NCBI GenBank assembly: GCA_000146045.2
Contig: BK006934.2
Coordinates: 288,001-352,000, forward strand
Source: TPA_inf: Saccharomyces
Taxonomy: Eukaryota
Direction of reading: 5' to 3'
DNA: 64,000 bases
Shown: piece after piece, positions 1-8,447 of the stretch
Layout: each line of letters opens with the position of its first letter
Position numbering within the stretch: position 1 is the stretch's first letter
Made by a program: the position numbers and the translations under genes
The notes under the pieces: model-generated
What the model saw: only the letters and a program-made list of their open reading frames with translations
The model's database searches: none
Told to the model about the DNA's origin: nothing

Positions 1-811
1 CAACTAAATAACGTGGAGATTCTGGAACGAATGTCATACCACCAATCATAAACAAAGCCCAAGCGAAACCTAGACCTAATGGAACTCTCCATTGGACAGA
101 ATTGGTGTAGGTCTTGGTACCGTAGTTTGTACAGTAACCCAAGAAAATACCCAAAGTAATCATAAGTTGGTAACATGAAACCAAAGTACCTCTAATATGC
201 TTTGGAGAGACTTCAGAAATCAACATAGGAGATAAAACGGCAATACCACCGACACCTAAACCAGAGATAATTCTACCAATGAAATATTGGTACCACTTGT
301 TGATTGAGGCAATTTGGATAATGATACCGATAATGTAGATGACAACAACGACAATCAAACCCATTTTACGACCATACATATCACCTAATTTTGCTAAAAT
401 AATACCACCAATGGCACAACCAATGTTGAAAATGGAGACAATTAAACCAGTTCTAACCTTAGACAAATAATAAGTACCATCGTGGTGCTTCATACCAAAT
501 CTTCTGATAAAATCAGTTTGAGCAACAAAACCAGAAATGGTACCAGTATCCCAACCGAAAACAAAACCACCGAAAGCAACCATTAAACAACAGATGGAAA
601 CTGTAACGTAGGCGGAGGCGGGCTTCTTTGGAATTTCAACGTAGTTATTAGATTCTTCGTGATTCTCGTCGAAATCTTTCATGTCATCTCTTTCAGCTTT
701 GTTGGATGGAGTAGACAAAGCGGAATTAGAATCGGATTCAACTGGCGACAAAGCATCAGCTGGAGTATTTTGGACTGCTGTATCCTCTTGATAGGCAGCT
801 TCTTCAGACAT
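1..811 (-). CDS. HXT4: Hexose transporter HXT4, N-terminal about 270 codons (3' part of gene lies left of window). MFS sugar porter.
   Basis: Reverse-strand ORF ends with ATG at 811..809 and reads [14 protein letters not shown]... The region is about 85% nt-identical to HXT1 (1..200 vs 3841..4040). It is the first member of the HXT4-HXT1-HXT5 array. Confidence 0.85.
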
Positions 812-2912: not shown

Positions 2913-4625
2913 TTATTTCCTGCTAAACAAACTCTTGTAAAATGGTTGGTCATCATGCATTAGGTCATCAGCGTTGTAGTCAGCGCCTCTCTTGGATACT
3001 GGAACCCAGGAAGCTGATTTCCATGGTAGAACACCTTCGGCGTACATATCATTAACTTCTTCTAATGATAAACCTTTAGTTTCTGGAACGAAGAAAAAGA
3101 CGTAAAAGTAAGCGAAAACCATACAGCCCATGAAAACGTAACCGTAGTAGAAGTTGATGGCACCAGTAATAAATGGGGTGAAGAAACTAATCAAGAAACC
3201 CCAGATCCAGTTAGCAGCACTGGCAATAGACATACACTTGGATTTGACTCTTAATGGGAAACATTCTGAAATAACAACGTAAGCAATTGGGGCCCAGGTA
3301 GTAGCGAAACAGAAAATGTAGAAACATGCGAAAACAATCATACAGTTACCAGCACCCTTTGAAGATGGTTGATCTTGACCGTTTGGCCATAATCTGGTAA
3401 CACCAACAGAGGCATAGACAACATAACAGCAGACCATACCGACAGCACCCCACATCAAACAGTTACGACGGCCAAAACGGTCAACGGTGTACAGAGAACA
3501 ACAAGTGGAGAAGAAGTTGACGACACCAAAGACAATAGAAGTTTCAAAAGAGTCACTTAAACCGACAGCCTGGAAAACAATGGTACCGTAGTAGAAGAAA
3601 TAGTTATCACCAGTTAATTGTTGTAGAGATTGAATCATGATACCCATCATAGTACGTTGAAACATGGCTGGTTTACCAGTGAATAATTCGCCCCAAGATG
3701 CAGTACCAGCGGCTCTCATTTCTTCGACACTGGCTTCGATAGTTTCCAACTCATATTGAATGTATGGATGGTCAGGTGGGCATTTGTTAACTTTAGCTAA
3801 AGAAGCCCTGGCTTCGTCGATTCTGCCAGCTTCAACCAAATAACGTGGAGATTCAGGAACAAACATCATACCACCAATCATAAATAAGGCCCAGGCGAAA
3901 CACAAACCTAATGGAACTCTCCATTGGACAGAGTTTGAGTAATTCTTGGTACCAAAATTGGTACAGTAACCTAAGAAAATACCTAAAGTAATCATGACTT
4001 GGTAACATGAAACCAAGGTGCCTCTCATTTCACTGGGGGCGACCTCAGATATTAGCATGGGAGATAAAACTGTGATACCACCGACACCTAAACCAGAGAT
4101 AATTCTACCAATGAAATATTGGTACCACTTGTTGATCGAGGCTATTTGAATAATGATACCGATAGTGTAGATTACTACAACGACAATCAAACCGATTCTA
4201 CGACCATACATATCACCTAGCTTGGCTAAGACGATACCACCAATGGCACAACCAATGTTAAAAATAGAGACAATTAAACCAGTTCTCACCTTGGACAAGT
4301 AATGACTACCGTCGTGGTGCTTCATACCAAATCTTCTTAGAAAATCAGTTTGAGCAACAAAACCAGAAATGGTACCAGTATCCCATCCAAATATGAAACC
4401 ACCGAAAGCAACCATAACACAACAGATAGAAACCGTTACGTAGACACCTTTTCCGGTGTTTGGAGGGGCAACGGCGGGTTGCACTTGACTTTCACTTAAG
4501 TTGTCGTGAAAACTTTCATTTTTACCTTCTGGAGTATTCATGGCCTTTGAACGACCAGATTCCAATTCATATGAGTTGGATGAATTGGATTTCTGAGGAG
4601 ATATTAGATCGGGAGTTGAATTCAT
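2913..4625 (-). CDS. HXT1: Low-affinity hexose transporter HXT1 (570 aa). MFS sugar porter.
   Basis: 570-aa ORF with ATG at 4625. It has 12 TM segments and the sugar-porter motifs GRR/PESPR. Length and position (between HXT4 and HXT5) match. Confidence 0.9.
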
Positions 4626-5271: not shown

Positions 5272-5303
<32 letters not shown>

Positions 5304-6668: not shown

Positions 6669-8447
6669 TTATTTTTCTTTAGTGAACATCCTTTTATAAA
6701 ATGGTCTCGGATCATTTCTAGTAGCGTCTAGGTCATAATCTGTTGTTCTCCTAGATGGTGGGATCCATTTGGTAGACTTCCAAGGTAGCACATTTTCTTC
6801 ATACATTTCGTTGACTTCTTCTAATGTTAAGCCCTTTGTCTCTGGAACAAAGAAGAACACATAAAAGTATGCGAACACCATACAACCCATAAAGACATAG
6901 CCATAATAGAAATTGATTGCTGAAGTAATAAATGGAGTGAAAAAACTGATCAAGAACCCCCAAATCCAGTTACAGGCACTTGCAATCGACATTGCTTTAC
7001 CACGTACTCTTAAGGGATACGACTCAGAGATAAGGACATAGGCAACGGGGGCCCAAGTGGTAGCGAAACAGAAAATGTAGAAACATGCGAAAACAATCAT
7101 ACAGTTACCAGCACCCTTTGAAGATGGTTGATCTTGACCGTTTGGCCATAATCTGGTAACACCAACAGAGGCATAGACGACATAGCAACAAATCATACCT
7201 ACACAGCCCCATAACAAACAATTACGACGACCAAAACGATCGACGGTATATAGCGAGAAAAAAGTCGAAACAAAATTAACAACACCCAAAACAATAGCAG
7301 TTTCAAATGAATCTTCCAAACCAACAGCCTGGAAAATTGTAGTACCATAGTAAAAGAAGTAATTGTCACCTGTCAGCTGTTGTAAAGATTGAATCATCAT
7401 ACCCATTAGTGTACGTCTGAACATCTGGGGCTTACCAGTAACCAATTCCCCCCAAGAAGCAGAGCCCGCCAATCTCTCAGCTTCAATAGAAGACTGATAG
7501 TTCTCCATTTCTAAAGTTACTAAAGGAGAGTCTTCAGTGGTTTTGTTAGCTCTTGCTAAGGACCGCTTGGCCTCTTCAATTTTTCCCACTTCTACCAGAT
7601 AACGTGGGGATTCAGGAACGAACGTCATACCAACAATCATAAAAATAGACCATGCAAAGCATAAGCCTAATGGTACCCTCCATTGGACAGAGTTTGAGTA
7701 ATTCTTGGTACCAAAATTAGTACAATATCCCAAAAAGATACCGAAAGTGATCATTAATTGGTAACATGAAACCAGAGTACCACGCAACTGCTTAGGCGAC
7801 ACTTCAGAAATTAGCATAGGCGCCAAAACTGTAATACCACCAACGCCCAGTCCTGAGATGATTCTTCCAATGAAATATTGATACCATTTGTCAATGGAGG
7901 CGATTTGGATGATGATCCCAATTGAGTAAATGACGACAACAGTCATCAGACCAATCTTACGTCCATACATATCACCGAGCTTTGACAAAACTATACCTCC
8001 GATAGCGCAGCCGATGTTGAAAATAGAAACCATCAAACCGGTTCTGACATCGGAAAGATAGGTAGTCCCGTTTGCACGGGTGCTGCCAAATCGCCTAATG
8101 AAGTCTGTTTGCCTGACAAAACCAGATATAGTACCAGTATCCCACCCAAACACGAACCCACCAAAAGCAACCATCAAACAGCAGACGGATACAAATAGTA
8201 AATCCGACTTCGATTTCTTCTCTAGTTGTTTGTCAACCTCCTTCTGAAGCTCTTCCAGTTCGTCTTTGGGAGGGCCTTCATGGGAAATGTAACTTGAGAC
8301 GGGTTTAGCTTGTGCCAAATTATCGTTGTAACCGGCGGTACCAGGAGCAGTCGAGTTTCCTGACTTCTCGTTGTATGAGTTAGAATTTGTGCTCACAGTA
8401 GCAGACCCTTCCAAGGGGCCTTGATGAGCGTTTTCAAGTTCCGACAT
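6669..8447 (-). CDS. HXT5: Hexose transporter HXT5 (592 aa), the growth-rate and stress-regulated member
   Basis: 592-aa ORF with ATG at 8447. It has a longer hydrophilic N-terminus ([18 protein letters not shown]) than HXT1/HXT4. The sugar-porter core is about 80% identical to HXT1. Confidence 0.9.

Follow-up and report, generated by a model that had tools for sequence, protein, structure and literature searches.

The window analysed here, 64,000 nucleotides (nt) of Saccharomyces cerevisiae DNA (contig BK006934.2 of assembly GCA_000146045.2, positions 288,001 to 352,000), carries the HXT5-HXT1-HXT4 tandem array of hexose transporter genes of chromosome VIII, and within this array a 119-nt tract that is identical base for base in HXT1 and HXT5. 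HXT1 lies 3.76 kb downstream of HXT5, in direct orientation. The product of its open reading frame (ORF) is identical to a protein (P0137) named by its sources hexose transporter HXT1 of S. cerevisiae S288C. Pfam comparison found the Sugar_tr and MFS_1 domains (PF00083, PF07690) of the sugar-porter hexose transporters, members of the major facilitator superfamily (MFS), and the best matches among solved structures, when the sugar-porter identity of HXT1 and HXT5 was tested, were STP10, XylE and GLUT1. The gene order, with a PAL1-like gene followed by HXT5, HXT1, HXT4 and an arginyl-tRNA synthetase gene, is kept in S. mikatae, S. kudriavzevii and S. uvarum. A comparison with HXT4 within the window itself was not possible, as only the first 811 nt of that gene are present. 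The coordinates of the genes and of the tract with its parts are collected in Table 1.

Table 1. Genes and tract features in the window; the roles of donor and recipient are those suggested by sequence comparison (CDS, coding sequence; aa, amino acids).
Feature	Position in window	Strand	Remarks
HXT1 CDS, probable recipient, 570 aa, S288C-type allele	2913..4625	minus	ORF; translation identical to P0137
HXT5 CDS, probable donor, 592 aa	6669..8447	minus	ORF; CDS identical to loci L006, L008, L009 and L010
HXT4, 5' 811 nt only	1..811	minus	gene cut by the window start
Maximal extent of the probable converted tract in HXT1 (CDS nt 1207-1325, codons 403-442)	3301..3419	minus	exact 119-nt identity with 7060..7178
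Probable donor copy of the tract in HXT5 (CDS nt 1270-1388, codons 424-463)	7060..7178	minus	same 119-mer also in strains with unconverted HXT1
Minimal extent of the probable converted segment (HXT1 CDS nt 1215-1314)	3312..3411	minus	all 22 clustered allele differences
5' junction interval, 8 nt, GTCTATGC (CDS nt 1207-1214)	3412..3419	minus	identical in unconverted HXT1 and HXT5
3' junction interval, 11 nt, TGTTTCGCTAC (CDS nt 1315-1325)	3301..3311	minus	identical in unconverted HXT1 and HXT5
23-nt block, AAGGGTGCTGGTAACTGTATGAT, encoding KGAGNCMI	3337..3359	minus	longest pre-conversion perfect match near the tract (HXT1 CDS nt 1100-1449)

An identical tract in two divergent paralogues

An earlier note on this DNA had drawn attention to the base-for-base identity of the two genes over these 119 nt, and exact matching across the window bore it out. 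The 119-mer occurs twice, both times in phase within a minus-strand ORF; the HXT5 copy, which the note had placed at 7061..7179, begins and ends one base earlier. The match is maximal, since the base adjoining it on each side is T in HXT1 and C in HXT5. Outside the tract the core CDSs of HXT1 and HXT5 are 72.7% identical, and the flanking sequence, examined in 60-nt windows, is 62-85% identical, roughly the 75-85% that had been claimed. Apart from the tract, the longest exact run common to both genes is 41 nt, and when the codon columns of the alignment were shuffled, 0 of 20,000 shuffles reached 119 nt (longest shuffled run, 57 nt).

The synonymous sites display the same pattern. In sliding 40-codon Nei-Gojobori windows the proportion of synonymous differences (pS) between HXT1 and HXT5 was 0.04 in the tract and 0.76, a saturated value, elsewhere. 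The drop has sharp edges and is confined to the tract; a uniform synonymous divergence (dS) along the two genes was not seen. About three synonymous sites in four thus differ in the background, and not one in four as had been stated, a threefold understatement. With the background divergence higher than supposed, the contrast with the tract becomes stronger rather than weaker. This combination of elevated identity and sharp boundaries is that of an interlocus gene conversion tract.

The 41-nt run is found at 3919..3959 of the window (HXT1 CDS nt 667-707) and at 7678..7718 (HXT5 CDS nt 730-770), and it is present in both of the S. cerevisiae HXT1 allele types described below, converted and unconverted. 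In the same region, HXT1 and HXT5 of the S. paradoxus-like locus (also described below) show 2 differences from each other, and HXT1 and HXT5 of S. mikatae show 3 each from those of S. cerevisiae. Runs of at least 40 nt appeared in 0.4% of the shuffles. This second run could be an older, fixed micro-conversion, or it could merely reflect strong conservation.

Upstream of HXT1, a plus-strand run of 26 A (5273..5298) forms a poly(T) about 650-670 nt ahead of the start codon. Its length varies by strain: it is absent in locus L007 and comprises about 5 to 23 residues in others. A tRNA scan of the window found no tRNA genes.

Direction, donor and age of the transfer

The commonest S. cerevisiae HXT1 allele, found at six loci (L006-L011), differs from that of the window at 23 sites. 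As many as 22 of these are clustered at CDS nt 1215-1314, inside the tract, and the remaining one is at nt 895, so that the two alleles are approximately 99.9% identical outside the tract. The strain comparison that the earlier note had called for therefore reveals an unconverted HXT1 which departs from the window allele almost solely within the tract, and whose own tract shows an ordinary synonymous divergence from HXT5 (pS 0.61). Of the 15 HXT1 protein variants listed, the S288C-type P0137 is alone in having the HXT5-type peptide; the form NGQNNGSS...MICF is found in variants labelled EC1118, K7, CEN.PK113-7D, Vin13 and S. pastorianus, and in many YJM and panel strains. The converted allele, with the same 22 variants, is present in nine independent assemblies, and the converted loci L019, L020 and L023 differ from the window at flanking single-nucleotide polymorphisms (SNPs). 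Its protein accounts for 40 of the 263 contigs that carry the 15 listed variants, a biased count which is not a population frequency. The S288C-type HXT1 tract is the derived form and is still segregating, and most sequenced strains keep the ancestral tract.

Comparison with the orthologous genes indicates which of the two paralogues was altered. The window HXT1 tract differs from S. cerevisiae HXT5 at 0 of 119 positions, and from HXT5 of other lineages at 4 (S. paradoxus-like), 7 (S. kudriavzevii) and 11 (S. mikatae); its differences from the HXT1 orthologues number 20-25 of 119. The rest of HXT1 is 10-14% divergent from those orthologues and 26% divergent from HXT5. The tract thus groups with HXT5 and not with its own orthologues, a phylogenetic incongruence restricted to this segment of the gene. 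In S. mikatae, S. kudriavzevii and S. uvarum, HXT5 encodes ...NGQ(D/S)QPSS...MIVF, whereas HXT1 combines a loop of another sequence (QENG, QDNG or PDGP) with MICF, the same ...SS...MICF type as the unconverted S. cerevisiae allele. The identical block was found in none of the outgroup lineages examined. Since the orthologous HXT1 genes are unlike HXT5 across the tract, the identity is specific to this lineage, and the change took place in HXT1.

Whether HXT1 is converted or, as in L006 and L008-L011, unconverted, the HXT5 tract does not change; the donor was thus left unaltered and the transfer was non-reciprocal. Every S. cerevisiae HXT5 examined possesses the tract, save for one SNP in L007. 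By these comparisons, the donor was S. cerevisiae's own HXT5, and the recipient HXT1. Polymorphisms in the donor tract were observed as Y457F in the HXT5 variants P0122, P0114, P0126, P0128 and P0133, and as C449S in P0131. Of these forms, Y457/C449 is the one present in the converted HXT1, which makes it the donor haplotype of HXT5.

In two assemblies labelled S. cerevisiae (GCA_947370875.1 and GCA_947370465.1; loci L027 and L028) the whole HXT5-HXT1-HXT4 locus is divergent. Its CDSs differ from those of S. cerevisiae by 5.8% (HXT1), 7.9% (HXT5) and 6.5% (HXT4), and its HXT5-HXT1 intergenic region is 79% identical, a divergence level between S. cerevisiae and S. mikatae; this would be consistent with an introgression from S. 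paradoxus. The HXT1 tract of this S. paradoxus-like locus differs at 22 sites from the HXT5 tract of the same locus, at 20 from the window allele, and at only 8 of 119 (6.7%, compared with 5.8% gene-wide) from the common S. cerevisiae allele, which identifies the ancestral, unconverted state of the recipient gene. As HXT1 is unconverted in this lineage and the window tract matches S. cerevisiae HXT5 at every position, the conversion is younger than the separation of S. cerevisiae from the S. paradoxus-like lineage. The recent date proposed in the earlier note stands, and is refined: the tract is polymorphic within S. cerevisiae, and hence younger than had been implied.

The 22 imported nucleotide changes cause the residue changes N418D, N419Q, G420P and C431V. 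Aligned to STP10 and to the standard 12-helix sugar-porter topology, the tract is predicted to encode the end of transmembrane helix 9 (TM9), the extracellular 9-10 loop and most of TM10; residues 418-420 would then be located in the loop, and residue 431 in TM10.

Extent, repair route and alternative explanations

Taken together, these results make it very probable that the tract was left by a single interlocus gene conversion from HXT5 to HXT1, short, non-reciprocal and without crossover, that took place within S. cerevisiae. Recent non-allelic conversion inside the array had been proposed before, and the sliding dS analysis, the outgroups and the other strains all support it. The length of the converted segment is bounded between 100 and 119 bp, and before the event HXT1 and HXT5 were identical at 97 of the 119 positions of the tract (81.5%). 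In all nine converted loci the order and spacing of HXT5, HXT1 and HXT4 are intact, with no crossover and no change in copy number. As both HXT1 flanks and the three-gene array are preserved, the tract is a non-crossover patch and not a chimeric fusion; a chimeric gene formed by unequal crossover is also not what is seen outside the tract, where a single difference separates this allele from the common one.

The most likely course of events would be that HXT5, close by on the same chromatid or on its sister, served as the template for repairing a lesion in HXT1, either by synthesis-dependent strand annealing or through a short heteroduplex whose mismatches were corrected to the donor sequence. 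Pairing may have been nucleated on the 23-nt perfect match, and resolution may have occurred in the 8- and 11-nt microhomologies. In yeast, ectopic conversion between genes that are 83-85% identical takes place at about 5-8e-9 per division, with tracts estimated at ~50 to a few hundred bp; efficient conversion requires homology near 200 bp, and rare events are possible with much shorter identities (PMC3924818). The HXT1 tract fits the reported length range, and is at or below the reported range of identity.

Several points weigh against this account. A tract identity of 81.5%, with lower values in the flanks and a longest perfect match of 23 nt, is well below the efficient processing segment of ~200 bp, and with so low a local identity and so short a match, classical heteroduplex-based conversion should be very rare here. 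The converted and unconverted loci were fetched by exact protein identity, and therefore form a biased sample that yields no real allele frequency. The nucleotide-level comparison of paralogues has HXT2, GAL2 and HXT8-17 outside its scope, and the "S. paradoxus-like" label is based solely on divergence level, the locus serving as a proxy for an authenticated S. paradoxus reference. Finally, the difference at CDS nt 895 (window 3731, codon 299) misfits a simple history of the common allele plus one conversion. The window allele encodes Ser299 (AGT), as does HXT1 of S. mikatae, S. kudriavzevii and S. uvarum, while Gly299 (GGT) is encoded in the S. paradoxus-like locus and in the 14 remaining HXT1 variants listed for the S. 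cerevisiae cluster. Ser299 is fully associated with the converted tract in our sample, which was chosen by protein identity, so that the association is not independent evidence.

Two sources for this residue were considered and rejected. A second, discontinuous patch of the same event does not account for G299S, as the HXT5 codon, TCT, cannot supply AGT; nor does a patch from HXT3, as the synonymous HXT3 differences three nt to either side of codon 299 were not converted. The change at nt 895 looks like a separate point mutation on the converted haplotype.

Regarding the copying process itself, an alternative to the repair of a double-strand break is that the HXT5 patch entered HXT1 by replication-associated, microhomology-mediated template switching, a route that we consider possible but rather unlikely. 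It would suit the location of the junctions in identities of a mere 8 and 11 nt, in surroundings which, at ~73-81% identity, are a poor substrate for Rad51-dependent homologous recombination, and it would suit a donor and a recipient that are 3.76 kb apart in direct orientation. The patch, however, is perfectly in register and free of indels, and homeologous conversion at 83-85% identity has actually been measured in yeast (PMC3924818). The sequence does not separate template switching from recombinational repair.

A reversed history, in which the S288C-type tract is the older one and the common NGQNNGSS...MICF allele arose through introgression or a back-conversion with an HXT1/HXT3-like gene as donor, would explain why the window allele shares Ser299 with S. 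mikatae, S. kudriavzevii and S. uvarum. We judge it to be very improbable. The near-complete identity of the two alleles outside the tract rules out introgression, and the common tract is identical to no paralogue examined (18-27 differences); moreover, its closest relative is the HXT1 tract of the S. paradoxus-like locus, 8 of 119 positions away, which also has Gly299. An unconverted variant (P0143) is the one named by its sources for strains BAH and YJM1418, the former of which we take to belong to a deep-branching Chinese wild lineage.

Even less credit is due to a conversion from another donor (HXT6, HXT7 or HXT3), or in the opposite direction, from HXT1 to HXT5. HXT6/7 and HXT3 were considered as donors because HXT6/7 and several HXT3 alleles likewise encode the peptide QDQPSS...MIVF, and both were rejected by the nucleotide comparison: the window tract differs from HXT6/7 at 12 positions, from HXT3 at 20-21 and from HXT4 at 23-24, compared to none for HXT5. 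The same holds within a genome that has a converted HXT1 (assembly GCA_000977295.3, locus L016), whose own HXT3 and HXT6 (L013) do not match the tract; Hxt6p was represented by P0068, and one of the assemblies of this protein carries the converted HXT1. The HXT5 tract, for its part, resembles that of its orthologues (4-11 differences), which tells against the opposite direction.

Two further explanations can be practically discounted. An ancient constraint at the nucleotide level, such as an RNA structure or a regulatory element embedded in the CDS, could be suspected from the highly conserved peptide and from the central 23 nt, which are identical even in unconverted alleles, but it was rejected because synonymous divergence is normal in the tracts of the orthologues and of the unconverted alleles: each of the four other lineages shows differences between HXT1 and HXT5 in this segment, the window tract is 20-25 sites away from HXT1 of S. 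mikatae, S. kudriavzevii and S. uvarum, and most S. cerevisiae HXT1 alleles are 22-23 tract sites away from HXT5. An artefact of assembly or of the laboratory lineage of the reference strain is conceivable in that paralogous genes can be mis-assembled, but is contradicted by the sharing of all 22 variants among nine independent assemblies, together with the flanking SNPs of L019, L020 and L023.

Other exchanges in the HXT family and significance

The conversion from HXT5 to HXT1 belongs to a well-known class of yeast interlocus gene conversions, and every defining feature of that class which could be tested was found. The SAM2 to SAM1 (83% identity) and PMA1 to PMA2 (85%) conversions likewise transferred short patches, tens to hundreds of bp long, in one direction only, and left donor and copy number unchanged (PMC3924818). 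Those events were selected in the laboratory between partners located on different chromosomes, whereas the HXT5 to HXT1 event is natural and segregating, involves tandem neighbours 3.76 kb apart, and took place at a lower local identity (~73-81%). Another similar case is the MalT434 maltotriose transporter of S. eubayanus, in which about 230 bp of MALT3 were copied into MALT4 (PMC6448821, PMC11291069). There too, a patch of at most a few hundred bp passed between sugar-porter paralogues and changed several residues at once; a new transport function was demonstrated for MalT434, while the HXT1 patch is known from sequence, with its altered residues mostly in an extracellular loop.

The earlier note had also equated the mechanism with the one that generates chimeric HXT genes in evolution experiments. 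This is true in a loose sense, as the chimeric HXT6/7 genes and amplifications obtained under glucose limitation, as well as natural HXT fusions, arise in the same family by ectopic recombination of tandem paralogues. They are, however, unequal-crossover fusions which delete or duplicate an interval and so change copy number, whereas the converted HXT1 keeps both of its flanks and the array. Our literature search found no description of the HXT5 to HXT1 tract or of the S288C-specific Hxt1 residues, with surveys in subscription journals lying outside the search and a prior mention therefore being possible; in the papers found to mention "gene conversion" alongside HXT1 and HXT5, the expression refers to Ty elements, forms part of a definition or stands only in a reference list.

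Other exchanges within the family were observed in the same data. In the HXT3 gene of strain YJM1460 (L025, 10001..11704), ~175 nt at about CDS nt 1240-1413 match the strain's own HXT6/7 and not other HXT3 alleles. This is an independent conversion, from HXT6/7 to HXT3, and it is polymorphic among strains. It resembles the HXT1 event in affecting the same region of a gene of the same family (the 9-10 loop and TM10 onward), and differs from it in donor and recipient, in its location on chromosome IV and in its longer tract. Locus L026 (644..2356) contains a 570-aa gene with the 5' part of HXT1 and the 3' part of HXT4, followed directly by the arginyl-tRNA synthetase gene. It is an HXT1/HXT4 fusion that has lost the interval. 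The same fusion type is shared by P0021 and P0026-P0028, and P0035 has what appears to be the reverse arrangement, an HXT4 N-terminus with an HXT1-type tract. Additional mixed types were seen at the protein level, in P0059, P0065, P0077 and others (HXT6/7 N-terminus with MICF) and in P0091 (HXT4 N-terminus with QDQPSS...). The mixed HXT6/7 and HXT4 types suggest that further inter-paralogue exchanges may have affected this segment.

It could be speculated that HXT paralogues repeatedly exchange the 9-10 loop and TM10 segment as a module, and that the resulting patches stay polymorphic because the module tunes affinity, substrate range or turnover. The YJM1460 conversion and the mixed HXT3, HXT4 and HXT6/7 tract types lend limited support to such a module, and we regard it as doubtful. 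Were it true, the patch in Hxt1 of the reference strain would not be neutral, and this Hxt1 would be a selected variant that differs in function.

As a case of gene conversion between duplicates, the HXT1 tract is clear-cut yet ordinary, and it opens no new biology. It is an unusually complete natural case, in that donor, recipient, ancestral allele and both junction intervals are identified, and can serve in teaching and in calibrating the reach of homeologous conversion in nature, with substrates that are ~73-81% identical. It also bears on the use of the reference sequence. Short-read variant calling can mistake the 22 clustered "SNPs" for a mutation hotspot or a mapping error, and HXT phylogenies or dN/dS (nonsynonymous to synonymous divergence) analyses that include S288C HXT1 are distorted in the tract segment. 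The Hxt1 protein of S288C is a minority, derived variant, which differs at residues 418-420 and 431, as well as 299, from Hxt1 of EC1118, K7, Vin13 and CEN.PK, and in the same manner from the cerevisiae-type Hxt1 copy of S. pastorianus; transport kinetics or engineering results obtained in different allele backgrounds may consequently not be comparable.

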